From positions 1 to 64,000 of the IMG/VR virus record IMGVR_UViG_3300045988_164457: a stretch of 64,000 nucleotides of DNA; one strand, given 5' to 3'. The position numbers and the translations under genes are program-made. Origin of the DNA: a virus. Of this stretch, positions 1,541 through 64,000 are shown piece by piece (the stretch's first letter is position 1; each line of letters opens with the position of its first letter). The notes under the pieces are model-generated. The model was not told the DNA's origin. It was given only the letters and a program-made list of their open reading frames with translations, and ran no database searches.

Positions 1541-2569
1541 GTGGCAAGAACAACAGTATATAACCACATAACAACTGAGGAAAAGATAGCAGAAATCAAT
1601 GAAAATAATACTTGGCTTATGAATGAATTTCTGGAGTATCTTGCCTCTGTTGACCGTTCTCCTAAAACGCTTAATGCCTATAGGAATGATTTACATATAT
1701 TCTTTGTGTGGAATATTGATTTTAACAATAATAAAAATTTTATAAAATTAACTAAGCGTGAAATAGCAAAATTTCAGAATTATGCTATAAATGAATGGCA
1801 TTGGAGTCCTAAAAGAGTTCGCCGTGTAAAGTCTGCTTTGAGTTCAATGAGTAATTTTATAGAAAATATTCTTGATGATGAAGATGAATATAAAGATTTT
1901 AGGTCTATTATTAAGAAAATTGAATCCCCTGCAAATGAAGCCGTGAGAGAAAAGACTGTTCTTTCAGATGAACAAGTTGAACTTTTGCTTAATACTCTTG
2001 TAGAACGTAAAGAATATGAAAAGGCTTGTGCAATAGCTATTTGTGCATATTCTGGAATGAGAAAAGCCGAGCTTCTTCAGATGCGAATGGAATATTTTGA
2101 TGAAAGTCATCTTGAATTTGGCTGTCTTTATAAAACTGATAAGATAAGAGCTAAGGGCAGAGGTCAGTTAGGCAAGCAGATTAACAAATACATAATGAAA
2201 AAGGTTGATAAATATATCGACCTTTGGAGAACTGAACGAGAAAGATTAGGCATTGAATCAGAATGGGTATTTGTTAAGAAATGCAAAGATGGCTGTGTTA
2301 AGCGTGAAAGTGTTGATAATTGGACTGATGAATTTTCTGAAATTGTTGGAGAAGATTTTTATTTTCACTCTTTGAGACATTATGTATGTTCTAATTTGTC
2401 GGCAAATAACCTCCCTGCTGAAGTAATTCGTGAATTTTTTCAGTGGGAGTCGGTCGAAATGATTAAAATATACAACGATAACTCGGCTGTTGATGATTTC
2501 GATAAATATTTTTCTGTAGATGGTGTAAACAAACAGGAAAATAGCAAGGGATTTTCTGATATAAAATAA
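1541..2569 (+). CDS. Tyrosine recombinase, XerC/XerD-like (SAM-like N domain plus catalytic domain)
   Basis: GTG start after AAGGAAG. N-terminal LNAYRNDLHIFFVW core-binding type motif. C-terminal YSGMRKAEL ... HSLRHYV ... IKIYN (R..HxxR..Y catalytic pattern). Confidence 0.8.
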   Translation: MARTTVYNHITTEEKIAEINENNTWLMNEFLEYLASVDRSPKTLNAYRNDLHIFFVWNIDFNNNKNFIKLTKREIAKFQNYAINEWHWSPKRVRRVKSALSSMSNFIENILDDEDEYKDFRSIIKKIESPANEAVREKTVLSDEQVELLLNTLVERKEYEKACAIAICAYSGMRKAELLQMRMEYFDESHLEFGCLYKTDKIRAKGRGQLGKQINKYIMKKVDKYIDLWRTERERLGIESEWVFVKKCKDGCVKRESVDNWTDEFSEIVGEDFYFHSLRHYVCSNLSANNLPAEVIREFFQWESVEMIKIYNDNSAVDDFDKYFSVDGVNKQENSKGFSDIK

Positions 2570-2627
2570 CATCGTCTCACAGCAGACACCTTAAAAGACA
2601 TAGTGGTTTACCCACATTATACAAAAC

Positions 2628-2662
2628 AAAGCACCATTCATCACAAAATGGTGCTTTTTTTA
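2628..2662 (+). terminator. Rho-independent terminator after the recombinase
   Basis: AAAGCACCATT / AATGGTGCTTT stem followed by a T7 run. Confidence 0.7.
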
Positions 2663-2825
2663 TGCCTTGATTTACCGTGTTAGGTGATAAAGGTATCCAA
2701 TGATACAAAGACTTACAGAGTTGCAAACTGTAAGACGAAGCAATGATAGGCTCTTCTCCCCTGTCATTGCTTTTCTTTGTGTTTAAATAAAAATTTAGGA
2801 GAAGATGTAGAATGGAGAAGAAATA

Positions 2826-4136
2826 ATGGGCAGAAAGAAAACACATGAAGAGTTTTTACAAGAAGTAAATAAAATAAATCCCCATATTGAAATATCGGGA
2901 TTGTATGTTAATGTTGAAAGTAAAATAAATTGTAAATGTAAAGTATGTGATTACGAATGGACTACTACAGCAAAAAATTTATTAAAGCCGAAGAAATGTC
3001 TATACTGTTTACAGAAGGATAAAGTTTTTGAATATCCTGATATTTCACATAAAGAATTTTGTAATATAATAACCAATAATTATCCTACATTATCTATTAC
3101 TGGAGCGTATACAAAATGTATGCAAACAATATCTTGTACTTGTAAAGAATGTGGACATCACTCAAGAATTAGGATACAAATGCTATTAGAATGTACTTAT
3201 AAGTGTCCTATTTGTAATAATGGTAAAGAAAATATTAAATATGGGATAAATGATATAAAAACAGCAAACCCAGTATTATATGAATGTTTAAAAGATAAGT
3301 CGGATAATAATAAATATACTATCAATAGCAGAGCAAAGACGGATTTTATATGCCCTTGTTGTCATCAAGTAATTAAAAATAAAACTATTACTATTGTAAA
3401 TAAGCGTGGTCTTAAATGTAAATGTCAAGATGGAAATAGTCTTGGAGAAAAATATTTTTATCAAGTTATGAAATCTTTAGATGAGAATATTGAAACCGAG
3501 AAATACTTAAATGAGAATTATTCTTTTAGATATGATTTTTATGGTAGTATTAACGGTGTTACTTGGATATGTGAGATTCAAGGTAAACAACACAATGAAA
3601 AATCATTTGAAACTTGCGGTGGTAGAACACTTGAAGAAGAAATACAAAATGATAAACTGAAAAAAGAATATGCTTTATCGCAAGGAGTTGACTATTACAT
3701 ACAAATTGATTCAAAAGAAAGTGGTTTTAATCAATTAAAAGACGCGATTATAAATAGCGACCTATCTAATTTATACTCATTTGAGAATGTAGACTGGGTA
3801 GAGTGTTATAGAAAATCTCTTATATCAGATGTGATTAAAATTACAGAACTTTGGAATCAAGGATATAAAATAATGGAAATTTGTAATATTACAGGATTCA
3901 ATAAAGGCACAGTTAGAAGACATTTAACAAAAGCAAATGAAATTGGATTATGTAACTATGACCATACTGCAAGTAATCACATTAAGGTACTATGCGTAGA
4001 TACCAATGAAGTATTTGACTGTTTGAGAGATGCAGAAAATAAATATAATATTAAACGTGGTTATTTGTCTGCTTATTTAAAGGGTAGAACAACTTTGCCA
4101 GTAGCTAATATGAATTGGGAATATATTGAAAATTAA
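2826..4136 (+). CDS. Free-standing homing-endonuclease-like protein (repeated zinc ribbons, PD-(D/E)xK/Vsr-like core, C-terminal HTH/NUMOD-like modules)
   Basis: 436 aa. Several CxxC...CxxC pairs (CKCKVCDYEW..CLYC, CTCKECGHH..CPIC, CPCCHQ). RYDFYGS..WICEIQGKQH nuclease-like block. C-terminal VLCVDTNEVFDCLRDAENKYNIKRGYLSAYLKGR resembles endonuclease DNA-binding modules. Confidence 0.45.
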   Translation: MGRKKTHEEFLQEVNKINPHIEISGLYVNVESKINCKCKVCDYEWTTTAKNLLKPKKCLYCLQKDKVFEYPDISHKEFCNIITNNYPTLSITGAYTKCMQTISCTCKECGHHSRIRIQMLLECTYKCPICNNGKENIKYGINDIKTANPVLYECLKDKSDNNKYTINSRAKTDFICPCCHQVIKNKTITIVNKRGLKCKCQDGNSLGEKYFYQVMKSLDENIETEKYLNENYSFRYDFYGSINGVTWICEIQGKQHNEKSFETCGGRTLEEEIQNDKLKKEYALSQGVDYYIQIDSKESGFNQLKDAIINSDLSNLYSFENVDWVECYRKSLISDVIKITELWNQGYKIMEICNITGFNKGTVRRHLTKANEIGLCNYDHTASNHIKVLCVDTNEVFDCLRDAENKYNIKRGYLSAYLKGRTTLPVANMNWEYIEN

Positions 4137-24226: not shown

Positions 24227-25047
24227 TTATAAAATTTCTTTCATTTTGATGTTTGTTTGTTGCTTATTATTTCTTAATTCCAAACAAAATTCTTCAATGG
24301 TAGGATATGACTTGCCTTTTCCTGCTGCATTTCTAAAGGACTGTAGAGCGTCTTTCCCAGAGTCAGGATCGTAAAGGAAATAAAATTGCTCTTCAATAAT
24401 ATCTCTATCTACTATTCCCTGCTTCCACGAAATTAAAAGAGCTTCTAAGAAATTTAAATATTGTATTATATACCATCTTATTTCGTTGCATTGTACAACA
24501 TCAATAGTATACATACGTGAACTGCTATCATTAAAATTTTTATCATAAACATGGCAGTCATGTGCCATATTTTCAGGTTTAATAGTGGTTTCAAAACATT
24601 TTTTACACGAAGATTTTTATAGCTTGAACAAATGGGGCATAATTCTTTTTTAGTTTCAAAATTAACTTCAAATGGCTGTTTATTATATAGGTTTGCACAC
24701 TGTTCGTGATTAAAACCTTCAACTATACGAACCGCATATGTAGTCTCCCATCGTAAAGATTCAGACCATTTAATCATGTAATCAACTGTCTTTTCTCTAC
24801 GCTTTTCATCGTGTCTTGCTCTTGAGTCGTTTTTAGCAACTACAAGTTGTATTACCAGTAAAACTAATGACAGAGAACCGTAAGCAGAAATCATTAAAGA
24901 GATTATCTCATAATCTCTCATATAGGTTTCTGGTATTTTAATACACAATAACACACATACAACAATAACTGCAACAGTAAGAATACCCAATGTTACTGCT
25001 ATGGCGGTATTCCAATTAAATTCTCGTTTGTTATTTTCTGTTTTCAT
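24227..25047 (-). CDS. Two-TM membrane protein with a DUF4760-like C domain, split over two frames at an A6 run (frameshift, pseudogene or -1 recoding)
   Basis: ORF 24478-25047 (N-terminal TM helices, ...CPICSSYKNLRVK) and ORF 24227-24568 (...CFETTIKPENMAHDCHVYD...YLNFLEALLISWKQGIVDRDIIEEQF) overlap. Frame B is open from 24616. Slippery A_AAA_AAT lies at 24604-24598. Confidence 0.5.
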
Positions 25048-25213
25048 AATAATCCTCCTTATTCAGTCATAGTGTATTGTTATACTATAATTATACAATC
25101 AGTCTCTAACAAAATCTATACGCTTAATTTCTAAATTTTATATTGTATTATTGTATATATTAACACAAAGAGACATTATATGCCACCGTAAAGTTTGTAT
25201 TTTTCCTATACTC

Positions 25214-25242
25214 TTGACATTTTGCTCTGAATATGTTAATAT
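25214..25242 (+). promoter_or_regulatory. Sigma-A-type promoter for the 25267 gene
   Basis: TTGACA 25214-19, 17-nt spacer, TAATAT 25237-42 preceded by TGT. Confidence 0.5.
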
Positions 25243-25266
25243 TATCTCAAATAACTACATTTTGAG

Positions 25267-26037
25267 GTGGACTATATGAAAAGACAGATTGTTTCGTTTA
25301 TGATGGCAATTTCTTTAATTGTGACATCAACATCTCCTGTTATAGCTCACAGTGGTAGAACCGATAGCAATGGTGGGCACAGAGATAATAAGAACAAGAG
25401 CGGGCTTGGATATTATCATTATCATTGTGGAGGACATCCTGCTCATCTACACGAAAATGGTGTTTGTCCGTATAAAAGCGGTTCAAGTTCTAACAATTCA
25501 AATTCAAGTAAATCAAACACATCATACAAGAATGAGAATATATCGTCATCCAAATCTAAGGCTGAGTGGATCGGAGACAAATATTGGACTGGCGATAGCT
25601 TTGCAAGAGGCTGGCAGAAAATAGACGGTTACACTTATTACTTTGATGATTACGGCGATAAAATGATAGGTTGGGCAAATGACGAAGAAGATAATACCTA
25701 TTATTTTGATGTTAAAGGCAGAATGAGTGTCGGTTGGAAAGAAATAGGTAATCATACATATTTCTTTAGTACAAATGGCTATATGCGTACAGGTTTACGT
25801 AAAACAGAAGGTAAAACATACTATTTTAACAAAGATGGTGTGATGGTTACTGGAAAAGTTAGATTTGGAGATAATATTCGCTATTTTGGTTCAGATGGGG
25901 CTATGAAAAAGGGCTGGGGCAAGATTGGCAATGATACATATTACTTCAAAAACAAAGACGGATATATGGCTACTGGAAAACTTAAAATTGATGATAAGGT
26001 TTATGAATTTGGAGATGATGGTAAGCTTATAATGTAG
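25267..26037 (+). CDS. Secreted YHYH-domain protein with clostridial-type cell-wall-binding (CW_binding_1-like) repeats
   Basis: Signal peptide MKRQIVSFMMAISLIVTSTSPVIA. HSGRTDSNGGHRDNKNKSGLGYYHYHCGGHPAHLH motif. At least 6 repeats of the GW.KI.G.TYYF...G.M.TG type. Confidence 0.7.
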   Translation: MDYMKRQIVSFMMAISLIVTSTSPVIAHSGRTDSNGGHRDNKNKSGLGYYHYHCGGHPAHLHENGVCPYKSGSSSNNSNSSKSNTSYKNENISSSKSKAEWIGDKYWTGDSFARGWQKIDGYTYYFDDYGDKMIGWANDEEDNTYYFDVKGRMSVGWKEIGNHTYFFSTNGYMRTGLRKTEGKTYYFNKDGVMVTGKVRFGDNIRYFGSDGAMKKGWGKIGNDTYYFKNKDGYMATGKLKIDDKVYEFGDDGKLIM

Positions 26038-26066
26038 TTAATTATAAAAAGCCTCTTTACTTTAGG

Positions 26067-26104
26067 AAGTCACCCATCTGAACAAGGTGGGTGACTTTGT
26101 TTAT
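26067..26104 (+). terminator. Terminator after the CWB-repeat gene
   Basis: AAGTCACCC / GGGTGACTT stem plus a T-rich tail. Confidence 0.6.
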
Positions 26105-26124
26105 GTTATCAATATAAAAAAGCC

Positions 26125-26160
26125 AAAGACCTACTCTTAAATTAGAGCAGGTCTTTCTTT
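26125..26160. terminator. Bidirectional hairpin terminator (serves the leftward BRO gene)
   Basis: AAAGACCTACTCT / AGAGCAGGTCTTT with A-run upstream and T-run downstream. Confidence 0.55.
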
Positions 26161-26273
26161 ATATCCTTTACAACTTAGTATCTTATACCATATTCACCGT
26201 TATGTATTTGAGTAAGTATTGGCACTGTCACAGGCTGAATACCAAGTTTAACAAGCGACACATCGGATTTCCA

Positions 26274-27083
26274 CTAATTTATAGCTGAAAGCTTCTGCAC
26301 AAGTATCTTACGGTAATTTTCAAGATTACGTGGAGAGTCATTGCTTTCAATAAGGTATGTAAGTGCTTCAATGCCTTTGATTTCACGGCGTACATATTCC
26401 ATTACGGAACGTACTCCTGCCTGAACAACATATCCCCTTTTCTCTATCATAAAGCTTGGGGTCTTACTGTTGTCAAGTTCATAATATGAAACAATGTGTG
26501 ATAAACCCATATTATAGATTACAAACAAAGATTTCTTGCATTTGAATAACTGAGGATTTTCTTTGTTGTATTCTTTGAGTTCATCACCAGTCAGTAAAGA
26601 ATAATCTCTATCTGGCATTAAGGCTGATTTGATATGATTGTATAGAGTAACTGAATTTATACCATAAATATTTGAGATATCGGAAGCAGTGAGAACAGGT
26701 CTGCCGTGAAATGTTTTCTCTATGTAGGCGTATGGAAGTGAGGGTGCTTTGGGTACAGTATAATTACCTGTCTTTCTGATTGATGGCAAGACTTCGTTAG
26801 TAACCCATTTGCGGAATATTCTGCACTTGTCTGTCCGAGCTTCAAGCATAAAATCATAGAGCTGAGACTCTGTTAAATACTGTTTCACACCGTGTGAAAC
26901 CAACGTAATTTCGGCATTTTCAGCAGTTTTAAGTATTCTTTCTTTGTAGGGATAAACATTTCCTTTAGCTTTGGCTACATATCCTAAAGCCTTACCAGTT
27001 GAGTAAATCTCGAATAAGGGTTCGCCATTTTCATTTTGAATGACCTCTACATCATTGCCTTCAAAATTCATAATCTCTTGCAT
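26274..27083 (-). CDS. BRO-N family antirepressor-like protein
   Basis: N-terminus FEGNDVEVIQNENGEPLFEIYSTGKALGY...LTESQLYDFMLEARTDKCRIFRKWVTNEVLPSIRKTGNY fits the Bro-N pattern. RBS AAGGAG. Confidence 0.75.
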   Translation of the reverse strand: MQEIMNFEGNDVEVIQNENGEPLFEIYSTGKALGYVAKAKGNVYPYKERILKTAENAEITLVSHGVKQYLTESQLYDFMLEARTDKCRIFRKWVTNEVLPSIRKTGNYTVPKAPSLPYAYIEKTFHGRPVLTASDISNIYGINSVTLYNHIKSALMPDRDYSLLTGDELKEYNKENPQLFKCKKSLFVIYNMGLSHIVSYYELDNSKTPSFMIEKRGYVVQAGVRSVMEYVRREIKGIEALTYLIESNDSPRNLENYRKILVQKLSAIN

Positions 27084-29834: not shown

Positions 29835-32800
29835 AAATATGGTATTTAAGACTGTTGACGGACACATAACTAATATATTTAATAAGGTCGATAAACTTAA
29901 TACGGGATTTGAACTTACAAATGATGAAATACAAAAAATTGTTAATCGATTTAATGACTTTAATTCTAAACAATCCTTTGGTCAGGAATATACAGATTTC
30001 ATTGCCGAAATGACCAATAGAAACTTTAATGTTTCCCAGATGTTCTCTGATCTTGCAAAACAAGGCGCTTCTGCAAGGGCAAGCATTGAGGGTTTCTATG
30101 CTGCAATTCTTGATGGTAATACTAAAGGTTTTGCCAATGTAAAATCAACTATAGCGTTGTTCAATCAGGCACAACAGTCTGGAGCAGATAACGCAAAGGC
30201 ATTTGCAAAAGCAGTTGGTCAGAGTAATACTCAGCTCGGTAATTATTTGGGCGGTCTTAACGGAGCTAAGGCATCTCTTGTTGGTTATGGTACGCAATTA
30301 GCGATTACAACAGCAAAAACTATAGGTCTTCGAGCTGTCACTATGGCTCTTAATGCTGCTTTGTCTTTTGGTGTTTTAACTGTTGTTAGTTTATTTGTTA
30401 GTAAGCTTGATGAATGGATTGTAACTCAAAAAGAGCTTACAGAACAAACAAAAGAATCTGCCGACAAGGCAAAAGAACAAGCGGCTGCGTTTTCTGATTT
30501 AAAAACTCAGTATCTGGCAATTATTGATAGTGCCGATGATGAGGCTACAAAAACAGAAAAACTTAATGAGTGGAAAAACACACTTATTGAAACATATGGC
30601 TTTGAAAAGAAAGCTCTTGAAAGTCTTAATACTGAACGTGAAAAAGGTATTGAATTGCTTGAACAAGAGTCTAAAGCTGGTATAAAATCAACTTATCAAA
30701 ATTATCTTGTTGAAAATAAAAATGAAATAGAAAAAGCCAAGAAAAAATTAGGACAGCTTGGTGAATTTAATATTTTTACAGGCTCACAGATTGATGTTGA
30801 TGAAAATGCCGATTTTGGCGTCGCCAAAAACCTTCAAAAGTATTTTGATGTAAAATCAGGGGATTATTTTGGTGAGTTAAATTATAAATTAAGTATCAAT
30901 TTTGACGATGCGGTTGATGAACTTGATCAATTAACCAAAATTCAAGATGAAATAAATAATATTGAATCGGAAAGAAAAGTAATTGGCAAGGGTTTAACAG
31001 AAGATGAAAAGTTAATTCGTCAATATGTTGAGAGTGAAATAAGTAGAATTGAAAAATTAAATGATAAATATTTATCTACCTATCAATCATCCGCTGAAGC
31101 TGGTGCTTGGGTAAAATTTAATACCGATGCCAATCAAAAAGCCTTAGAAGCCGCAGGAAAGGATGGCTATTCAAGTTGGAGGAATGCTTTTTTAAAGCAA
31201 GCTGAATCCCCTGCCGAACAGCGAGAAATGGAAAAAATTCTTGCTGAGAATGTTCCTGACTTAGAAACTGCTTATAAAACTCTTGAAACTCGAAGAAATA
31301 ATCTTGAACTTGCTAAATCAAAATTCGGCATAAGTGATTTGCTTAATTCAGAAAGTGCGAGAATGAAGGCTGTTTTCGTAAACTCTCTTGATGATACAGA
31401 CCTCGATATTCTTGTAAACAAAAGCGAAGACCCATTTAAAAATGGTATCGAAGGTGCTAAAAAGGCTATTGAAGATTTTAAGGCTGACCCTAAAAACCAA
31501 ATCAATGTTGAAACTGACACTTCTTCGCTTGAAGAAGCAACTAAAAAACTTGAAGATTATTCTAAGTCTATAAGTGATTACACAAAAGCTCAAAAAACTA
31601 TTACAGACGCATATAATGAACAGACTAAATATGGACAACTCGCAGCAGACACAATTCAATCTTTGATTGATGCTGGATACGCTGAAGCTCTTGTTGTAAA
31701 TGATGAAACTGGTGCTGTAACATTAAATACATCTGCTGTAGAAATGTTAAATAATCAAAAGAAAGTATCTCTTTTACTTGATGCTCAAAAGCAAAAATCC
31801 GAATTGACAAAACAGCTTGATGATGAAAAATCGAAAATTGATTCACTCACAAGCAGTCTTATGACTAATAATGAAGAAAAGAAGAAGTCATATGTTGCGG
31901 ATTTGCTTGCTGCTCAAGCGAATAAAGAACAGATTGAATCACAGATTGCAATGTATGATGCTTTAATGTCTTCTTTAGATGCTCCTGACTTTGGAACTGA
32001 AAATAAGGAAGACCCTGCTACTGTAAAACAATTCAAGAAAGATAATAAAGAAAAGAAACATCTTCTTGAAATGGAACAGATTACAGAGCAAGAGTATTAT
32101 GATTGGCTTGACAGTAAAAGCCATCGTGTTTATGGTAATCTTGCTGATTATCAAGATGAGCTTTGGAAGCACGAAGAAGAGGTTTATAACTGGAGACAGG
32201 AACAAGAACAAAAGCTCTTCGACAAGAAAATTGACAACCTTGAAAAGCTGGCTGACAAGGCACTTGATAATTACAAGGACGGAGACGGTAACGAGCTTAC
32301 AGTTACAGCAAGTTTTGATTATGCACGTGAACAGATAAACAAGGCTATTACCGAAACTCAGGCAAGAATTGACGGTATCAGAAACGGTACTATAAGTGGT
32401 GACACTGACGATATAGAGGCACTTATAGATGACCTTGACAGTCTTTATGACAAGTTTATTGATATCAATAAGAAGGAAATCGAATCAGAAAAGGATTATA
32501 TCAGTGAACTCAAAGACGATTATTCTGATATGATGGATGAGCGTATTGATAAGGTTGATGAGCTTTCTGATAAGATTGAAAAGAGCTATGACAAGCAAAT
32601 AGATGCTATTGACAAACAAATAGATGCTCTTGAAAAAGTCAAGGACACTGAGGATAGAATCAAGAAAATCAAGGACGCTCAACTTGCTGTTAAGGAAAAG
32701 GAGCAAGCTCTTGACGAAGCTAAACGTGAAGATGCTAAGAACAATTACGTTTACTTTGACGGAACTGGAATGTCTGTACAGACTTCTGATGAAAATCAGA

Positions 32801-33804
32801 AAAAGGCACAGGAGGAGCTTGATGAAAGTAAGAAAGACCTTGAAGAAGCTTATCGTGATGAACAAATCAGTGTACTTAAAGACCAAAAGGATATCCTTGA
32901 GGAACAGAAAGACACTGCTAAAGATTATTACGATAACGTAAAGGACAATCTTGAAAAACAGAAAACACAGGGTGAAAAGACCTATGAAGCTGTTGAGAAG
33001 ATTTATGAGCAGCTTGGCGGTGACAAGAAACAGACTTCTTCCAACGCCGAACTTGTTAAAAAGCTTTCTAAGTCAGGTGATATATCTAAGGCAATGTCTG
33101 AATTGTCTGATACTGAACGTCAGAAAGCTATTGATACAGGCGTTGTCAAGATACAGCCTAACGGTGATTATACTTTTGATTATTCTGCCTTTGAAAAGTA
33201 TTCAAGTACGGTAGATGACAATACACTTGCTACACAGGATTTAACTTCTATTCTTAAAGACATAGTTACTCAGACTAATACTGATAATAAGGATAAGACT
33301 GATAATTCTATGGTTGCAGGTGGCTTTAATCTTGTTGCTGACCCTAAGACAGGCAAACTTACTAAGAAACAAGTTATGGTCAATGGTGAAGTTGTTGAGG
33401 GATTAGGTCACAAGGTCTATGCTACTTCTAAGGAAGAGTGGCAAGGACATAATAACAGTGAAAGGACAAGCAAGGGAAGCTTTGCTGGTTATGATACGTT
33501 TATTGACTTTATGAGGGCTGTTAGTGCTGGAAAGGTGGATATTAGTCCTCTTACTAATGCGTTCAATAGTGACTATAATCCTATTGTTGACAGAATGAAT
33601 AAGTCTGTGAGTGATACCATTAACAATGTTTCTAACAGCAATGTTAATAATAACATCAATAACAAACCTGTTGTAAATCTTACTGTAAATGTTGAAGGCA
33701 GTGCTGATAAAAAGACTGTCGAAGCATTTAGGAATGTGGTCACTAAAGAAATTGGCACTGCTTTTGATGAATTTGGAAAAGCAGTACGTAATGCTAAAGT
33801 TTAA
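29835..33804 (+). CDS. Tail tape-measure protein, exon 4 / C-terminal part (5' boundary 29835-29842 uncertain)
   Basis: The frame is open only from 29830 (TAA at 27-29). There is no convincing RBS before ATG 29839. About 1320 aa with a hydrophobic TMP-type segment (LAITTAKTIGLRAVTMALNAALSFGVLTVVSLFV) and long coiled coils. Confidence 0.65.
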
Positions 33805-33843
33805 ACACTTTTGATGTTTGACTTTTGTATAAAAATATAGTAA

Positions 33844-33886
33844 AATAGAGCGTGAACCTTATCTTCACGCTCTATTGTTTATTTTT
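33844..33886. terminator. Bidirectional terminator between the TMP and the leftward TIR gene
   Basis: AATAGAGCGTGAA / TTCACGCTCTATT. T-run downstream and A-run upstream. Confidence 0.7.
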
Positions 33887-33890
33887 ATGC

Positions 33891-34319
33891 TTAAAGTGAA
33901 TAAGTTCTTATTGCAGAAACAATACTATCCGTGTACCAATTTACAGTTGTAGTTGCAACGGAGCTAACTTCTGTTGGCATATTTACATTTCCACGAGGTT
34001 TGATTGCAATGATAGGTTTTCCCATTGCTACTGCGCAATCTAATTCATACTGCATCCATTCACGATTATTATAGTACATTCCCGATATAACTAAAACACA
34101 ATTTACAGGTCTGATTTTTCTTAAAATAGCATCTTTAATTTGTGTTTTATTGGTAACGGAAGTACCATCTAAATTTATAAGAGGATTGTCTTTTGGAGCT
34201 GAATAATTATAATACTTAAAATTAGGAGCTTCTTCCAATAAATCATTTAAGTGAATGTAATCATCGCCGTATTTCCAAGCATGACTAATAAATAAATGGT
34301 ATGGCTTTAACTCTGGCAT
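33891..34319 (-). CDS. TIR-like domain protein (DUF1863 / ThsB-like)
   Basis: ATG 34319 (GAAAGG upstream). MPELKPYHLFISHAWKYGDDY...QIKDAILRKIRPVNCVLVISGMYYNNREWMQYELDCAVAMGKPIIAIKP matches the TIR-like pattern (FISH..., S.W...E). The longer track ORF to 34457 is an artefactual extension. Confidence 0.65.
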   Translation of the reverse strand: MPELKPYHLFISHAWKYGDDYIHLNDLLEEAPNFKYYNYSAPKDNPLINLDGTSVTNKTQIKDAILRKIRPVNCVLVISGMYYNNREWMQYELDCAVAMGKPIIAIKPRGNVNMPTEVSSVATTTVNWYTDSIVSAIRTYSL

Positions 34320-34376
34320 ATAAATTACAACCTTTCTAAAATAAAAATTTAAACAATTCCATAAGGAGGAATTATT

Positions 34377-34577
34377 TTGAATACTAATGTAAAAAAATAT
34401 CGTAAGAAGCCTGTTGTAATTGAGGCATATCAAACTGACAAGGAAATTGTTATTCACACATTAGAGGGCGATATGATAGCATCTGTTGGGGATTATATTA
34501 TCACGGGTGTGAATGGAGAACAATACCCTTGCAAACCTGATATCTTTGAAAAGACTTACGAATCTGTAGAAGATTGA
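34377..34577 (+). CDS. PGDYG-like small phage protein (opposite strand, between the SLATT and TIR genes)
   Basis: TTG start 8 nt after [21 protein letters not shown]...[27 protein letters not shown] resembles the PGDYG family motif. Confidence 0.5.
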
Positions 34578-35053
34578 CTTACTTTGCTTTGCCATGTTGA
34601 AAATTCTTTAGTAAAATACTGCTCACAATTACTAACTAAGGTATCAAATGCCACGTCTGGGTTGTTAGAATTGTAGGGCGGTATTTTATTTATAAATTTT
34701 GAAGCTTCACTTTTCAGCATCTCGCAATTCATGCGATATTGAACCCATAAGTCTTTAAAGGTGTTTATATTTATTATGTAGGTGATTACCGAGACGGCTG
34801 AACCAGCAATGGCAATTAATATATTAACTAATGGTTTTTCTTCAAAAAGTGTTAATATTGGAATTGAAGAAGATATTATAACAGATATGACAGATAAAAC
34901 TTTGTAGTATTTTTGATTATGTTTTGCTTTTTTATCATACCATTGTATTTGGTCAAGCAATCTGTTCTTTAAATATCTTTGTTGTTTTTCAGTGTATTCA
35001 CTGTAATCTATCGGAAGGTCTATTATGTAGTTTTCATTTGATTTTTTACACAT
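34556..35053 (-). CDS. SLATT / DUF4231-like two-TM effector protein
   Basis: [40 protein letters not shown]...[44 protein letters not shown]...PPY shows W..k...y, then 2 TM helices, then W..YR..cE.L..E..., the signature I recall for this family. ATG 35053 has GGAG at 7 nt (35065 is also possible). Confidence 0.55.
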
Positions 35054-35252
35054 TTTATGCTCCATTTTTCACTGTAACGAGTTGTATTGTATAAGTATAT
35101 TGTATGCTATATTAAGAATAATTTCAAGTGAAATTTTGTATATTATGGCAAATTCCATAATATTAACAAGTTTTAACAAAATATATTGTTGATAAGCGAC
35201 AAAAGCATATAGTTGAAATATAGACTATTAAGAATATAAGGAAAGGATTGTT

Positions 35253-35726
35253 ATGGATTACAAAAGACAAATTTTAAATTGTGCCAACGAACTTATACAT
35301 AAAAACAATTCACAAATCAATAAATCTAATTTTGATAAAACCTATATTGGTAAAGTAATAGGTTCAATAAAAGATGATAATGAAAAAGTAGTACGTTGGC
35401 AGATATTCGCAAATGCTTCTACTTTTAATGTGCTTGCTGAAAATTGTAATGTTATTGCAGTAGGTCAGCGTGTGAGAATGTTTATACCCAGTAATCAGAG
35501 AGATATGGTTTATGCAGAGGTTATAACCGACTATGAGTTTAACCACCCATCGAAAGCGGTATATGATGCCGAAAAATGCACTGTAACGGAGACTTGGCTG
35601 CTTTCCGACAAGACGGAAGAGACAAGGGTATTTACTCTGACTGTCAAGGACAAGGGCGGTTCATCGGAAGAAGTCACAGCGATCACTTTCCCCGATGGCA
35701 GTGTTATGAGTTTGGAGGGATTTTGA
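35253..35726 (+). CDS. Hypothetical distal-tail region protein
   Basis: 157 aa with RBS AAGGAAAGGA. First rightward gene after the island. Confidence 0.3.
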   Translation: MDYKRQILNCANELIHKNNSQINKSNFDKTYIGKVIGSIKDDNEKVVRWQIFANASTFNVLAENCNVIAVGQRVRMFIPSNQRDMVYAEVITDYEFNHPSKAVYDAEKCTVTETWLLSDKTEETRVFTLTVKDKGGSSEEVTAITFPDGSVMSLEGF

Positions 35727-45285: not shown

Positions 45286-46599
45286 ATGTATATGGGACTT
45301 ATAAACCAAAAAATAGAAGTTGTGCTATCAGGGAAAAATATTCCATACTATGAAAATTTGGGTTATGAAATTCCGAGAGTATATAAAAAATATGGTTTAA
45401 GTACACCTCAAAGGACAAAAATAATTGTAGATGTTCTCGATTTATCTAAAGGGTCTGACGTAAAGGTTGATGTTCAATGTGATTGTTGTGGAGAAATACA
45501 TAAAGTTTCATATTATAATTATAATAAATATCGAAATGAGGATAAATATTATTGCAGAAAATGTAATAAATTAGGCGATAGAAATCCAAATTGGAATTAT
45601 AATAAAACAAATACTGAACGAATTTTACAAAGGAATTATGTTGATTATGATATATTTATTCATAAAGTTTTAGCCAGAGATAATTATACTTGTGTGATTA
45701 CTGGTAAAACAAACAAGGAAGCCAAGTTGGTGGTTCACCATCTTAATAGTTATGATTGGGATTTTGATGGTCGCATAGATGTTTGTAACGGGATTACTAT
45801 TACAGAAGAATTACACAAAGCATTTCATTCACAATATGGCTACGGACAAAACACTCGACAACAATTTGTTGAATTTACAGGTAAAGTTGATTTAATACTA
45901 AAAAACTATAATGGAGAAGTACCAACGGCAAGATGGGCGTATTGTATTACAGATAATGAAATAATTCAAAATGTAAAAAGGTATGCAGAAAAAAATCATA
46001 TAGCAGATACTGGTATTTATAATTGTTGTAATGGCAAGCTCTATACATATCATAATAAAATTTATATATGGTATGATAAATATTTATGTATGTCTAAAAA
46101 TGATTTAAATATTTATGTTGACATTTGTAAAAATTCACGTTCAAAAAAAGTGATTTGTACAACTACTAATAAAGTTTTTAATAGTGTAATTGAAGCAGCT
46201 GCTTTTTATAACATTCGTGAAAGTGGTATAAGTGCTTGTTGTAGGGGCGAATATAAACATAGCGGAAATTTATCAGATGATACTCCATTATGTTGGATGT
46301 ATTTATCTGACTATGTGAAAATACCCGAAAAAGGAATAAATTTGCAAACACAAGAAACATCTAAATTTTGCGGGAAAAGACAAGTAATGTGTATTACAAC
46401 CGGGAAATTGTTTAAATCTATAACAGAAGCAACAAATTATTATAAAATACCTGCAACTGGTGTAAGTTGTTGTTGTCGTGGTATTCAAAAGACCGCTGGA
46501 AAACTCCCCAACGGTAAACCTTTGAAATGGATATATTATAACGAATTTCTTAAACTTTCAAAGGAAGAACAAAATAAACTTTTAGCTAATATTTTATAG
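45286..46599 (+). CDS. Free-standing HNH homing endonuclease with repeated NUMOD/IENR-like DNA-binding modules
   Basis: VVHHLNSYDWDFDGRIDVCNGITITEELHKAFHSQYG (HNH). Three repeats of the V.C.TT.K.F.S..EA..YY.I...G.S.CCRG type. Confidence 0.7.
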   Translation: MYMGLINQKIEVVLSGKNIPYYENLGYEIPRVYKKYGLSTPQRTKIIVDVLDLSKGSDVKVDVQCDCCGEIHKVSYYNYNKYRNEDKYYCRKCNKLGDRNPNWNYNKTNTERILQRNYVDYDIFIHKVLARDNYTCVITGKTNKEAKLVVHHLNSYDWDFDGRIDVCNGITITEELHKAFHSQYGYGQNTRQQFVEFTGKVDLILKNYNGEVPTARWAYCITDNEIIQNVKRYAEKNHIADTGIYNCCNGKLYTYHNKIYIWYDKYLCMSKNDLNIYVDICKNSRSKKVICTTTNKVFNSVIEAAAFYNIRESGISACCRGEYKHSGNLSDDTPLCWMYLSDYVKIPEKGINLQTQETSKFCGKRQVMCITTGKLFKSITEATNYYKIPATGVSCCCRGIQKTAGKLPNGKPLKWIYYNEFLKLSKEEQNKLLANIL

Positions 46600-52080: not shown

Positions 52081-53247
52081 ATGAAAGGTAGCGTAAGAAA
52101 AAAAGGAGCTACTTGGTCTTTCCGTCTTGATCTGGGCAAACAAGAGAATGGAAAACGTAAACAAATTGAACGTAGTGGTTTTGCTACTGAAAAAGAAGCT
52201 CAAGCTATGTTAGCCAAGTATATAGACGAGTATAATAACAATGGTGAGATTGTCGAGAACAAAAAGATAACTCTTAATGAGGTTTATCAGGAATTTATCG
52301 ATAATGAAGCTAATACCACCCGTAAGCATTCAACCGTTACAAGATATAATTCTTTATATAGAAATCATATATGTAACGAAATAGGTTACAACTATATTGG
52401 TAATTTTTCGGCACAAAAATTACAAGAATATATTAATAGTAAAAGAAGCGAAAATCTGAGTGACGAATACATTAGAAGTATTTACAATTTTTTACTTGTA
52501 TTATTTAGGTATGCTGTTAAAAGAAAGTACATCAGAACCAATCCTACTATCGGAGTTGTCCCACCAGCAAGTTATCGTGCATACGGTGAAATACAAACTT
52601 ACACTAAAAAAGAATTAGAGTTAATGGAACAAAGATGTGCTACAACAAATTTAACTCCAGCCTTTAAAATAGGAATTAACCTTGGTCTTAGAGTTAGTGA
52701 ATGTTTTGGATTAAGATTTTCTGATATTGATTGGAATAAAAAGACTATACGAATAAACAAGCAATTATATTTTCAAGATAAACAATGGTCTTTTATACCA
52801 CCCAAAACAGTAAGTAGTGTAAGAACTATAAAAATGGGTGATGAATTTACCAATTACCTCAAAGAGCTACAAGCACAGCATGAAAAAAATAAACAAGAAT
52901 ACGGCGATGGATATGCTATAAATTTTGTTACCGATAGAAGAAATGACAAAACGCAAAGAATTATCGTTGATGACTTTATAAATGTTAAGCCAAACGGAGA
53001 AATGCTTACTCCAAATAGCATTAAGTTTATGAGACGCATATTTAAAGACGACCTCAATATAGACTTCAAGTATCATAATCTTAGACACACTCATACCACT
53101 ATGTTGGCTGAATCGGGTGTAAATCCTAAGTACGTACAGAAGCGCTTAGGGCATAGTAAATTAGAAACCACTCTTAGATATTACACCCATATCACTGATA
53201 AAATGGATGAAGAAGTTGCAAATATTATGGATAATATTCTAAAATAA
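52081..53247 (+). CDS. int: Phage integrase (tyrosine recombinase)
   Basis: N-terminal MKGSVRKKGATWSFRLDLGKQENGKRKQIERSGFATEKEAQAMLAKY arm-binding type domain. C-terminal GLRVSECFGLRFSD...HNLRHTHTTML...LGHSKLETTLRYYTH. Confidence 0.85.
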   Translation: MKGSVRKKGATWSFRLDLGKQENGKRKQIERSGFATEKEAQAMLAKYIDEYNNNGEIVENKKITLNEVYQEFIDNEANTTRKHSTVTRYNSLYRNHICNEIGYNYIGNFSAQKLQEYINSKRSENLSDEYIRSIYNFLLVLFRYAVKRKYIRTNPTIGVVPPASYRAYGEIQTYTKKELELMEQRCATTNLTPAFKIGINLGLRVSECFGLRFSDIDWNKKTIRINKQLYFQDKQWSFIPPKTVSSVRTIKMGDEFTNYLKELQAQHEKNKQEYGDGYAINFVTDRRNDKTQRIIVDDFINVKPNGEMLTPNSIKFMRRIFKDDLNIDFKYHNLRHTHTTMLAESGVNPKYVQKRLGHSKLETTLRYYTHITDKMDEEVANIMDNILK

Positions 53248-56207: not shown

Positions 56208-57470
56208 TTATTCTCCCATACCGCTGCTGGTATTTTCCCATTTACGCATACAATACTCTTTCTTACGAGCATTCGTCCATGTGTTAATGGGCGTATAAAA
56301 ACCAACTACTCTCGTATATTCTGTTGCAATAGGCTTACCACAAACAGGGCAAGTTGTTCCATAAAAAGCGTGATTATCTTCGCAGGCTTGAATTTTAGTA
56401 TTAAATGCAAAATAGGTAACACCTGCATCAGCTATGTAACAAGTCATTTTATAAGCTTTATCAAAGCTATCAAAAGGACTGTCTATATTTGCGTGAAGAA
56501 TTGAACCACCATTACAGAACCTATCAAACATTGCCTGAATACGAATACGTTCTTTCAATGTAGTTTTAATTCCCAGAGGAATAAACTGATTACCATAAAG
56601 AGGAAGGTTGTAAATATTTGCTTCGGGGTAGAAAAATTTATCCTTATTCATAAGTTTCGATGCTGCACTTTCACCCGGTATCTGTTCAGTATTTATCATA
56701 TAATCACAATGATTGTCAGCGATGAATTTATCAGCAACTTCTCTCATTGTATCGAATATCTGTTTGCCAAAAGTTGAAGCCTTATCAGTATAATATACAT
56801 TTCCAAACTCATCTGTGGTAGTACAGCCAAACTTTTTCATTGTTTCATATATACCAATAAATCCAATCGTATTGTACAAGTGTTCAAAATCAACAAGCTG
56901 GTAAGAGAAATTCGGAAGCAGACCTTTTTCAACATCTCTTCTGATGATATTTCTAACAATATCCAATGCTCGAATATTTGATAATGTTCTAACTTTGAGT
57001 TCTTCAAGATATTCTTCCTTGGTGTTTGTATCAAGTGCCAGACGAGCAAGATTAATTGTTGATACCTTAACAGAACCAACCTTTAAAGCTGTACCACCCA
57101 CTGAATTAAAATAGCCAAGGTCACGAATATCAGATTTAAGTCTACAGCAATTAGAAAGACTTGAAACATTATCGTCAATAAAGAGGTTGCTATCTGACCA
57201 TTTCATATTGTGCTTAATTGCCCACTTGGCAAAATTCTCATCTTCAAATTGACCATTCTTACGAAGAAGTGAGATTGTGCTTACCGGAAATGTAAACATA
57301 TTTTCAGAACGTATGTCAGACATAACTTCCATATAAAGTTTTTGAAAATCAATAATTTCATCTTCAAAATCAATCATATATGTACCATCCGGGAAAGTGC
57401 TTCCTCCAAAAAGTGCTTCAAAATACGGTCTATCAAATACGGAGGTATTGGTAAATGCGGATTGCTGACC
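56208..57470 (-). CDS. nrdD: Anaerobic ribonucleoside-triphosphate reductase, exon 2
   Basis: The frame is open upstream of ATG 57377 to 57476. GQQSAFTNTSVFDRPYFEAL...; C-terminal CEDNH...CPVCGK zinc site and glycyl-radical motif TRVVGFYTP. Confidence 0.8.
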   Translation of the reverse strand, partial: GQQSAFTNTSVFDRPYFEALFGGSTFPDGTYMIDFEDEIIDFQKLYMEVMSDIRSENMFTFPVSTISLLRKNGQFEDENFAKWAIKHNMKWSDSNLFIDDNVSSLSNCCRLKSDIRDLGYFNSVGGTALKVGSVKVSTINLARLALDTNTKEEYLEELKVRTLSNIRALDIVRNIIRRDVEKGLLPNFSYQLVDFEHLYNTIGFIGIYETMKKFGCTTTDEFGNVYYTDKASTFGKQIFDTMREVADKFIADNHCDYMINTEQIPGESAASKLMNKDKFFYPEANIYNLPLYGNQFIPLGIKTTLKERIRIQAMFDRFCNGGSILHANIDSPFDSFDKAYKMTCYIADAGVTYFAFNTKIQACEDNHAFYGTTCPVCGKPIATEYTRVVGFYTPINTWTNARKKEYCMRKWENTSSGMGE

Positions 57471-58655
57471 CGTTTACCCTCATATTTCTATGAGAACTGA
57501 CTATTTTTTACTACCTTTTAATAGGGTAGCACTTCTCTTTCAAGCAACGTACCAATAGTTGCTTTACTCTCCTTCACGGAGATAGTCGATACAGGCTTCA
57601 AATTGTTAATTTAGTTATTAAAACGTAATGGATATTCTAAGTTTCTACGTCTATACATTTTGGTATTACCACTTTTTATTCCTATTATTATATTACTTTC
57701 TACCTTATATTTTTTTGCTATTTGTCTAATAGAAATATTAGTGTTTATCAATAAATCAATGATTTGAGTTACATCTTCATAGGATAATTTAGGCTTGCTA
57801 TTTGTATTTGCAAAATCCCTAATTGGATATATTTCATCTAACATTTTATGATACATACCTTTATTAATTCTTGATATTGCTCGTGCCTCAACATTATATT
57901 TTTGAGCTATTTCTTCATATGAAAGATATGTGAATTTTAAAATATCAATAATTTCTAATGCTTGATTTTTAGATATTTTACCACGATCATTCGGATTTTT
58001 TCTTATAGGATAAATAATATTATCTTGTTTATAAGAACGTCCAGCATTAATATCATTTATTGTTGAAGGATTAGAATTATATTTTTGAGCTAACTGTCTA
58101 TAACTCAAATCAGAATATTCTAAATCATATATAAGACCTTGTAAATCATATTCCGTAAACTTGGATTCAGGGTGTTTAATTCCAGCCAGTACAGGAGGTT
58201 CCTCCCCACCACTTAAAATATTATATCCATTAGGACGAATACTATCATACTTATCAATCCAATATTGTTCACGTTCGTTATAATTATCAATATCTGATTC
58301 GAGGATTTCAATCCAAAAATGAGATTTACCATATTTCTGAATTGCTTTTGCCACCAAATCATTTTCTATTAAAGCCGAACTTGGCTTACAATGTGCTTGA
58401 AAGCGTTTGTGAACGTTTTTGGCTTGACCTATGTAGACTTTATTGTTAAGATCATTTTTTATTATATAAATACTTTTTGTCATTTTGTCACCTCCTCATC
58501 TGTATCTGTAAATAAATTAACTGAATTAACAAATTTGATTCCCACGAGATTACCTTGCACTATCCGCAAAAGTGTTTAGGTTTCCTCGTTAGCCATACAT
58601 TTATTTGTATAACCCCATTGGTTAATGGAAAAGAAGTGAATGGACAATCTTACTT
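57471..58655 (-). mobile_element. Group-I-like intron in nrdD (boundaries inferred)
   Basis: Exon 1 ends ...AGGGAT; the intron starts AAGTAAGATT then GTCC (58645-42), which pairs with GGAT giving a U.G. The intron ends ...GGGTAAACG. The join gives NQPCVRD|GQQSAFTN. Carries a GIY-YIG ORF. Confidence 0.65.
57611..58483 (-). CDS. GIY-YIG homing endonuclease (I-TevI-like) with three HTH/NUMOD-like repeats
   Basis: SIYIIKNDLNNKVYIGQAKNVHKRFQAH...YWIDKY...GYNILSGG. Repeats LSYRQLAQKYNSNPSTINDINAG / LSYEEIAQKYNVEARAISRINKG / ISIRQIAKKYKVESNIIIGIKSG. Confidence 0.8.
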   Translation of the reverse strand: MTKSIYIIKNDLNNKVYIGQAKNVHKRFQAHCKPSSALIENDLVAKAIQKYGKSHFWIEILESDIDNYNEREQYWIDKYDSIRPNGYNILSGGEEPPVLAGIKHPESKFTEYDLQGLIYDLEYSDLSYRQLAQKYNSNPSTINDINAGRSYKQDNIIYPIRKNPNDRGKISKNQALEIIDILKFTYLSYEEIAQKYNVEARAISRINKGMYHKMLDEIYPIRDFANTNSKPKLSYEDVTQIIDLLINTNISIRQIAKKYKVESNIIIGIKSGNTKMYRRRNLEYPLRFNN

Positions 58656-59342
58656 ATCCCTTACGCAAGGTTGATTCACGGCGTAAATAAATCTCTGAAA
58701 TGCCTGTTCAGCATATTTCTTTTCAGAATGAGATGTCCTTACTCCCATATAGTCATTTTCAATATCTTTATGCCAAAAATAAAACATATAAGGAATAAGA
58801 TTAGGAAGTCCACAAGCACCAGAACTTCTATTGCTTGCAAAGTTTATGTATTCTTTGACAAAATCAACAAATGTTACAAGATGTTTGGGTGGCTTTGGAT
58901 TAAAATTATCACTTAGAAAAAACAAACCCTTTTCAGCAACATCTTTGAGGTCGTACGCAAAACAATAATGTTTAAATGTACTGGTATCTCCATCGTGCAT
59001 ATAAAGTTGACCTATCCATTCACGCCATAACCAGTCATTTGCTGCCTTGAATCCATATTTCTTCTGATATTCATAATGTATTTTATTATAAGCAAGAAGC
59101 TTTCTATGAGGCTTAGGCATCTCGGTAAGGAGCGTTACTATATCCTTTCTCCTTACATTGCTATTTCCATCAATACTTGAATCTGCAACCGTAGTTTCAT
59201 CAATAAAATTATCAATAAAATCGGTATATGAGAGCTGTGCATCATCAAAGCCATTTAACCTTGCAATATATGTACCATATTCACCTTGAAGTTTATTATA
59301 TTGTGTTGTAAAATTTTTATCTAATCTAATGCTTATTTCCAT
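58656..59342 (-). CDS. nrdD: Anaerobic ribonucleoside-triphosphate reductase, exon 1
   Basis: 229 codons ending ...FIYAVNQPCVRD, then a stop two codons into the intron. Continuity with exon 2 restores a ~650-aa NrdD. Confidence 0.8.
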
Positions 59343-63882: not shown

Positions 63883-64000
63883 TTATGTATTCTCAATTCT
63901 CTTTTTAGCTATCTCAAAATATGTATCATCAAGTTCTATACCAATAAACTTACGATTAAGGTTCTTACAAGCCACACCTGTGCTACCACTACCCATACAA
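63883..64000 (-). CDS. DNA methyltransferase, C-terminal fragment (gene continues beyond the window)
   Basis: The reverse translation ends ...[36 protein letters not shown], the AdoMet-binding motif I region of N6/N4 MTases (DPF.GSG.T...R.fIGiE). Confidence 0.6.

Follow-up and report, generated by a model that had tools for sequence, protein, structure and literature searches.

A probable type VII Thoeris-like cassette with a conserved opposite-strand PGDYG gene in the tail operon of a temperate gut phage

A short block of leftward genes interrupts the rightward late operon of the phage represented by the IMG/VR virus record IMGVR_UViG_3300045988_164457, and the question raised by this locus is what such a cassette does there and what part is played by the third gene that it carries on the opposite strand. 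The stretch analysed, here called the window, comprises the 64,000 nucleotides (nt) from position 1 to position 64,000 of that record, and the cassette is contained in a segment at 33753-35308. It consists of a TIR-like gene and a SLATT gene, both leftward, and of a rightward gene of the PGDYG family that lies between them. By analogy with experimentally validated systems, the TIR/SLATT pair is very probably a type VII Thoeris-like defence system, and the antisense PGDYG gene, as an invariant third gene of such pairs in Bacillota elements, appears to be new, being mentioned neither in the 2022 survey nor in the 2025 preprint that deal with these pairs. Taken as a whole, the cassette is probably best read as a type VII Thoeris-like moron in which PGDYG acts as a negative modulator or self-immunity factor, a reading that we favour with some reserve.

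The TIR-like (thsB-like) gene at 34319-33891 on the minus strand encodes 142 amino acids (aa) and matches the Pfam family ThsB_TIR (PF08937; E 6.3e-13, 49.4 bits, cut-off 21.2) as well as the PADLOC ThsB model (E 1e-11). A longer open reading frame (ORF) of 188 aa with a GTG start was rejected for this gene, since its homologs begin with MP(E/K)L. A profile made from 19 SLATT-linked TIRs of Bacillota, Proteobacteria, Bacteroidota, Aquifex, and Archaeoglobus finds two solved structures of ThsB, 6LHY and 9B7D (E 4.6e-08), in an alignment that includes the W..yE motif, and F10, S12, Y21, W88, E92, and K101 are invariant in these 19 proteins. E92, whose codon occupies 34046-34044 on the minus strand, corresponds in the alignment to the Glu within the WVRYEI motif of the solved ThsB proteins, and we take this Glu to be the catalytic residue. 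The SLATT/DUF4231 (thsH-like) effector gene at 35053-34556, also on the minus strand, encodes 165 aa with two transmembrane (TM) helices at residues 49-71 and 73-97, and passes the cut-offs of Pfam DUF4231 (E 1.1e-18), Pfam SLATT_1 (E 7.7e-12), and NCBIfam SLATT_1 (E 3.3e-28); a sequence search of the PDB with this protein gave no match. Its W..YR..E.L..E signature is present, and the Y, R, E, L, and E of this signature are invariant across five phage SLATTs. The ATG at 35053 has a GGAG ribosome-binding site (RBS) six bases upstream, and an alternative ATG at 35065 has none. The ORFs, the TM segments, and the signature that a first-pass annotation had proposed from the letters of the sequence are all confirmed, and its two family assignments are borne out by the hidden Markov model (HMM) searches, which matched both families.

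The PGDYG-family gene at 34377-34577 on the plus strand encodes 66 aa from a TTG start located 7 nt 3' of an AAGGAGG RBS (34363-34369). It matches Pfam PGDYG (PF14083) with 27.1 bits against a cut-off of 27 and over model positions 6-35 only, and phrog_419 with an E-value of 1.9e-29, so the RBS-preceded opposite-strand gene described earlier is real. Its 3' end also overlaps that of the SLATT gene, as had been noticed; the convergent overlap spans 22 nt (34556-34577) and, when examined for its fold, yielded no hairpin or terminator structure. From the SLATT stop to the TIR start there are 236 nt on the same strand, with the opposite-strand PGDYG gene in between; the spacer had been correctly recognised, and its size had been given as 237 nt.

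At one edge, the cassette is closed by an intrinsic terminator (33844-33886) with a 13-bp stem at 33844-33876 and U-tracts on both strands. The hairpin folds with -18.1 and -18.5 kcal/mol on the two strands (z -5.3 and -7.7), no shuffled sequence folds equally well, and, because a U-rich tail follows it on both strands, the terminator is bidirectional, in agreement with the earlier description of a leftward moron in a rightward late operon bounded in this way. Upstream of the SLATT gene, a promoter-like site on the minus strand at 35099-35127 (TTGAAA-17-TACAAT) has 10 of 12 consensus matches, whereas a weaker one with 9 of 12 matches lies upstream of PGDYG on the plus strand at 34313-34342, in the 57-nt divergent gap to the TIR gene. 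In the consensus scan, the number of promoter-like sites in the region is not above shuffle expectation, and the site at 35099-35127 is a candidate only. The SLATT and TIR genes have one terminator in common and one promoter-like site.

The combination of these two proteins has a history. A neighbourhood of TIR and two-TM SLATT genes in Firmicute phages was described in 2022 by Iyer, Burroughs, Anantharaman, and Aravind, who predicted that it limits superinfection by means of a SLATT gated by derivatives of ADP-ribose (ADPR) (PMC9503650). In a preprint of December 2025, Yirmiya et al. established TIR plus SLATT as type VII Thoeris, composed of ThsB and the SLATT effector ThsH, and three such systems, from an Alteromonadales scaffold, Pseudohongiella nitratireducens, and Bacillus licheniformis SCCB 37, provided defence (bioRxiv 10.64898/2025.12.03.692087). 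The view of the first-pass annotation that a minimal pair of this kind is uncharacterised must, therefore, be abandoned. According to the same preprint, type VII TIRs make canonical cyclic ADPR (cADPR) only upon infection, added cADPR is toxic with the Alteromonadales and B. licheniformis systems whereas 2'cADPR and 3'cADPR are not, and neither Tad1 nor MoTad2 inhibits the Alteromonadales system (bioRxiv 10.64898/2025.12.03.692087); because of the latter result, no inhibitor of the type VII pathway is known.

As in type VII Thoeris, a ThsB-family TIR with the catalytic Glu is found in the cassette together with a small two-TM SLATT_1/DUF4231 protein encoded nearby on the same strand, and the type VII family is spread over many phyla, Bacillota included. 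However, the systems that were tested have consecutive gene IDs and lie in defence islands, whereas the genes of the cassette are split by the 236 nt containing the opposite-strand PGDYG gene and lie in a phage late operon. The neighbourhood of the 2022 survey is the same as that of the cassette, and the SLATT matches obtained here include Javan281 and SN10, which it gives as examples; SN10 and Javan277 carry all three genes, Javan277 being the same 14,560-nt element, with the same coordinates, as Javan281. That survey mentions occasional helix-turn-helix or zincin neighbours but not an invariant PGDYG gene, and the cassettes it describes are beside an integrase, unlike that of the window in the tail operon (PMC9503650).

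The PGDYG gene is conserved with SLATT-TIR pairs across the mobile elements of Bacillota, which gives substance to the earlier suggestion that it could be a third component. Translation of the opposite-strand ORFs near the SLATT-TIR pairs of phiCDKH01 (from C. difficile), Javan616 (Streptococcus), X2 (Staphylococcus), and IME197 (Enterococcus) produced clear PGDYG homologs in all four cases. The trio was also found in Javan365, Javan277, S-CoN_Ph24, SN10, and Javan199, and in a second IMG/VR lineage (L012-L015); PGDYG is beside or inside the pair in 10 of the 10 Bacillota phage or satellite lineages examined. In addition, the PGDYG of a Ruminococcus bromii-type prophage, 80% identical, occurs in 2,974 blocks of the assembly collection, and all 10 of the loci that were read contain a leftward TIR of 142 aa, a rightward PGDYG, and a leftward SLATT of 173 aa with an adjoining integrase, while their outer neighbours vary. 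A genome scan with a SLATT alignment, limited to one genome per species, returned 80 loci. PGDYG is adjacent and on the opposite strand in every adjacent SLATT-TIR pair from Bacillota genomes (15/15) and is also present at one further Bacillota SLATT locus whose TIR was missed by the model, whereas among the adjacent pairs outside Bacillota it was found in none of 22, the search with a broadened PGDYG HMM included. The presence of SLATT-TIR pairs in Bacillota and in other phyla also confirms that the two genes co-occur beyond this phage.

Two layouts are seen, namely SLATT> <PGDYG TIR> in the window, in clostridial elements, and in Faecalibacterium, and SLATT> TIR> <PGDYG in staphylococci, streptococci, enterococci, and bacilli. 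Moreover, both TIR subfamilies are accompanied by PGDYG in Bacillota and are without it elsewhere, and thus inheritance within a single TIR lineage is not enough to account for the link. No relevant paper was retrieved when the literature was searched for PGDYG, PF14083, or phrog_419.

Some of the elements with the trio are of interest in themselves. The Streptococcus satellite phages Javan365 and Javan277, of 12-15 kb, have the full trio beside an integrase, and the SLATT of Javan365 is annotated only as a 48-aa fragment, the full ORF being present. In gut Bacillota chromosomes (L023-L032), the slot beyond SLATT is variable and is occupied by further defence-like genes for CAP12-PCTIR TIR, Abi_alpha, and TPR proteins, and the same prophages have SIR2_2 or KAP NTPase genes outside the integrase; this slot looks like a prophage defence hotspot.

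That the cassette was inserted, as the first-pass annotation had supposed, is demonstrated by relatives with an empty site. Two sister IMG/VR contigs (L121 and L123), located by searching IMG/VR with the downstream gene 35253-35726, share 90-93% identity with the window as far as 33752 and again from 35309 (blastn), and between these points they have about 166 nt, comprising the end of the gene for the putative tape-measure protein (TMP), a hairpin, and the next start codon, versus 1,556 nt in the window. Because the sister phages have an empty site, the cassette is a true insertion, and because they lack the whole 33753-35308 segment, the trio arrived as a single unit, PGDYG included. The left flank is the putative TMP gene (29839-33804, plus strand, 1,321 aa), so named from its size, its position, and the variation of its length, which is 1,353-1,631 aa in relatives; the right flank is the first gene of the downstream tail-gene block (35253-35726, plus strand), which comes directly after the TMP-like gene in relatives too. 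Tail-like matches and an endolysin are found further downstream of the cassette. The proposed location between the TMP and the distal tail genes is thus correct as regards the tail-gene block, and the TMP label is plausible only, since the 1,321-aa protein, like most flanking tail genes, has no Pfam or PHROG match.

The carrier is best explained as a large (about 120-135 kb) temperate phage of gut Clostridia. The window is nearly identical to IMG/VR contigs of 118-135 kb, and a temperate phage is indicated by the tyrosine integrase that it encodes (52081-53247, plus strand; phrog_1, E 1.2e-70). With the cassette and 24 kb of the window as megablast queries, no GenBank phage matched, and the phage is represented by IMG/VR contigs only. 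Insertion into the tail operon concerns an uncommon site but is ordinary moron biology. The classical late-operon morons, such as lambda bor/lom and the morons of HK97, are autonomous units with their own promoter and terminator that lie between structural genes and are absent from close relatives. The cassette is likewise absent from close relatives at the same site and has its own terminator, with a promoter that is recognised at consensus level only; unlike the classical morons, it carries an immune module of three genes that occupy both strands.

PGDYG proteins share a core, GDY(I/V)..G..GE.YP.K..IF..TYE, that aligns from Caulobacter to Staphylococcus phages and is present in the protein of the window. 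The cassette protein is a minimal form, whereas the versions of lytic phages have an insert of 20-70 residues after the N-terminal RKKPV strand, and the Pfam PGDYG model misses lytic-phage homologs that tblastn detects. The AlphaFold2 model (predicted local distance difference test, pLDDT, 88) is a small, confidently predicted all-beta domain with six strands and a short helix. In BFVD it resembles only uncharacterised PGDYG proteins, phmmer against the PDB gave nothing below E 1, and assignment to an SH3/Tudor-like fold was rejected, the Foldseek matches in the PDB that pointed to it being weak and at noise level. In its small size and its wide distribution over lytic and temperate phages, PGDYG is comparable to Tad1, Tad2, Acb2, Sequestin, Lockin, TadIV-1, and RyDEP; it differs from these sponges and enzymes in having no sequence or fold similarity to solved structures and in being all-beta, in contrast to the helical Sequestin and RyDEP.

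The family comprises 17,577 representative clusters (E <= 0.001) and is present in 849 of 50,697 phage records. It occurs in strictly lytic phages of Bacillus, Staphylococcus, Acinetobacter, Klebsiella, Caulobacter, and actinobacteria, and among its carriers are SBSphiJ and Fado, two B. subtilis phages of the type VII preprint; SBSphiC, with which the Bacillus type VII system was triggered, is absent from the 60 best PGDYG matches, from which no conclusion is drawn. Stand-alone homologs that are 83-95% identical to the PGDYG of the window are co-directional with lytic genes in unrelated contexts, some upstream of endolysin and holin and others between GemA and Mor in Mu-like phages. Where the trio is present, PGDYG is in every locus antiparallel to TIR, SLATT, integrase, and repressor and so points in the lytic direction; in the window its orientation is that of the late operon. 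When 21 trios were compared pairwise, PGDYG had a median identity of 65%, SLATT of 40%, and TIR of 39%; conservation above that of its neighbours argues, therefore, against a co-evolving partner role of PGDYG and for a conserved ligand or target. Moreover, -10-like boxes clearer than that of the window are located just upstream of PGDYG in several loci, such as TGTGATATAAT in phiCDKH01. To judge from these motifs, PGDYG probably has its own promoter, and because of them read-through of the late operon as the sole route to its expression was dropped.

The neighbours of PGDYG in lytic phages were read in 12 hand-picked phages, with no background rate, and constitute a lead only. In the Curtobacterium phage Yotsuba, the PGDYG gene comes immediately after an Acb2/Tad1-type sponge (gp61-62; Pfam E 3.1e-12), and in the Gordonia phage OneUp it comes immediately after Prs and Nampt (gp100-102), with a weak SLOG-like match downstream. 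Other neighbours are SIR2 in NDO71, an ADP-ribosylglycohydrolase in Weasels2, and a 'DprA-like' gene in Konradin. PGDYG-containing proteins of actinophages are sometimes annotated as 'nicotinate ribosyltransferase', an annotation to which Pfam gives no support. A different type of protein, P0121, of 3,743 aa and from a 1.13-Mb ENA contig, contains about 30 tandem PGDYG repeats together with annexin and AAA_33/zeta-toxin-like kinase domains; Pfam analysis of long PGDYG-containing proteins combined with a cluster look-up gave no functional lead, only the repeats, the annexin, and the kinase domain of this protein.

From this arrangement we infer a defence function, a signal, and a role for PGDYG along the following lines. 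In the lysogen, a leftward SLATT-TIR mRNA would start from the promoter-like site near 35100 and end at the terminator at 33844-33876. The TIR protein, through E92, would sense an infecting phage and use nicotinamide adenine dinucleotide (NAD+) to make a cyclic ADPR signal, most likely canonical cADPR by analogy with the validated type VII systems. The ThsH-type SLATT would then oligomerise and breach the membrane, and the cell would die before the intruder multiplies, which would protect the lysogen population. During lytic growth of the carrier phage itself, PGDYG could switch off or buffer the system, as a protein that either blocks the pathway or acts on the ADPR-derived signal by binding or destroying it, and convergent PGDYG transcription running without a terminator across the SLATT-TIR mRNA could add to this effect. 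The antisense or transcription-interference control put forward earlier is compatible with the anatomy, that is, with the convergent overlap, the lack of a terminator between the genes, and the -10-like box upstream of PGDYG. In lytic phages, stand-alone PGDYG would serve as counter-defence. Taken by itself, a negative or self-immunity role of PGDYG is a tentative proposal; more speculative again is the notion that PGDYG is a very large counter-immunity family that neutralises TIR-derived ADPR signals, for instance through sequestration or cleavage of canonical cADPR, a molecule with no known viral inhibitor, and that the prophages, the satellites, and the phage of the window that have type VII Thoeris have built a copy of it, in antisense orientation, into their defence operons to act as an off-switch in the lytic phase.

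A similar arrangement is reportedly found in the BstA prophage defence system, whose self-immunity element, aba, is said to be a stretch of DNA within the gene for the defence. Both cases follow one logic, since prophage-borne abortive infection must spare the lytic growth of its own carrier; unlike aba, the candidate here is a separate protein-coding gene, which is present also in phages without a defence system.

PGDYG could also be an unrelated hitch-hiker, either a recombination landing pad or an old linked neighbour, of an ordinary two-gene type VII Thoeris. This would agree with its being alone in most of its carriers (849 phage records, as against about 32 with SLATT), with the homologs of 83-95% identity in unrelated contexts, and with the validated type VII systems, which have no third gene. 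Nevertheless, a hitch-hiker would hardly be expected inside the SLATT-TIR operon with an overlap of the SLATT 3' end, as in one of the layouts, nor to move with the pair as a unit into a new site in the phage of the window, nor to be kept with two TIR subfamilies, in two layouts, and with SLATTs down to 27% identity, and the contrast of 25 of 25 Bacillota elements with 0 of 22 elsewhere makes this explanation unlikely. The same strict co-occurrence in Bacillota is what a positive or structural component would show, be it a sensor adaptor through which the TIR is presented with a phage cue or an activation factor of SLATT in Gram-positive envelopes, and three of four Bacillus two-gene type VII constructs, whose cloned flanks are not stated, failed in B. 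subtilis, where a part could have been missing (bioRxiv 10.64898/2025.12.03.692087). We regard such a component as somewhat less probable still than a hitch-hiker, given that an obligate co-factor would not usually lie on the opposite strand, as PGDYG does at all loci, that lytic phages carrying the same protein alone gain nothing by aiding abortive infection, and that PGDYG evolves far more slowly than its supposed partners.

Explanations that dispense with signalling have less to recommend them. The TIR could be a plain NADase toxin, with SLATT as a holin-like or superinfection-exclusion protein, or the trio could resemble a toxin-antitoxin module with PGDYG as the antitoxin: some bacterial TIRs are effectors that deplete NAD (bioRxiv 10.64898/2025.12.03.692087), SLATT is a small two-TM protein like holins, and a small gene in convergent orientation is reminiscent of antitoxin or antisense arrangements. 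However, infection is required for SLATT-linked TIRs to make cADPR, and cADPR by itself is enough to set off SLATT toxicity (bioRxiv 10.64898/2025.12.03.692087), the TIR of the window is of the ThsB family, and PGDYG is far more conserved than either 'toxin', unlike a co-evolving antitoxin, all of which makes these options improbable. Offensive use of the cassette during lytic growth, by NAD+ depletion or membrane permeabilisation that would time lysis or disarm NAD-dependent defences of the host, is suggested by its late-region location, with the endolysin a few kb downstream. We consider this hardly credible, since the cassette runs counter to the late operon and possesses a terminator and a promoter-like site of its own, and since all other elements have the trio beside integrase and repressor on the lysogeny strand.

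Several observations weigh against the interpretation of the cassette as a type VII Thoeris-like moron with PGDYG as its modulator. The function proposed for the cassette is deduced from its sequence, and the signal molecule of its TIR is not readable from the letters. In Salmonella houtenae, a TIR that is 39% identical adjoins a caspase-like gene, a type IV-like context, so the signal cannot be assumed. As regards PGDYG, the best Foldseek match of its model in the PDB has an E-value of 1.5, with no solved sponge or enzyme fold, and in the absence of a significant PDB match it belongs to no solved sponge family; it is also acidic overall (pI 4.8), in contrast to the basic pockets of known sponges. 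With -10-like boxes of its own, PGDYG could be expressed in lysogens too. Since the validated type VII systems report no third gene, PGDYG is not needed for defence in general, and the NAD- and ADPR-linked neighbours in lytic phages come from the hand-picked sample described above. Finally, common descent of one mobile cassette within Bacillota could explain part of the association of the three genes and inflates the counts.

The TIR plus SLATT pair represents a known type of defence, to which the window adds a member in an unusual place. The hypothesis on PGDYG bears on how prophage-borne abortive-infection systems avoid killing their own phage at induction, and on how phages answer cADPR-based Thoeris of types VII and VIII, which Tad1 and Tad2 do not inhibit, and it offers a testable function for one of the larger uncharacterised families of phage proteins. 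Should PGDYG prove to inhibit cADPR signalling, self-immunity would be built into the defence that the cassette provides, and the finding would be of greater interest. In practical terms, pipelines that consider only immediate neighbours of the same orientation can overlook, or divide wrongly, the layout that has PGDYG in the middle of the SLATT-TIR pair, and constructs cloned with and without PGDYG may differ in behaviour.

Some further observations concern the TIR gene and the rest of the window. The TIR of Salmonella enterica subsp. houtenae belongs to the locus 2483-3875 of AGRM01000005.1, where it is unannotated and directly upstream of an 'ICE-like protease p20' (caspase-like) gene, the two making up a type IV Thoeris-like pair. 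In a near-identical sister contig (L009), SLATT, PGDYG, and the C-terminal half of TIR are 98-100% identical to those of the window, whereas the N-terminal half of TIR (window 34000-34400) has 66-75% nt identity, the TIR protein being 85% identical; this localised mosaic patch points to swapping by recombination, or to diversification, of the part of the protein that is presumed to sense.

More leftward genes are found within the rightward block at 24227-27083 on the minus strand, with an Ant-like anti-repressor at 26274-27083 and two ORFs at 24227-25047, and these may be additional morons. At 56208-59342, also on the minus strand, an NrdD-like anaerobic ribonucleotide reductase comes in two parts, with the N-terminal ORF at 58650-59342 and the C-terminal one at 56208-57377, between which lies a GIY-YIG/HNH-type homing endonuclease gene (57611-58483), in what looks like a homing-endonuclease or intron-type interruption. 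Another HNH/homing-endonuclease-like gene is located on the plus strand at 45286-46599, just downstream of the lysis region.

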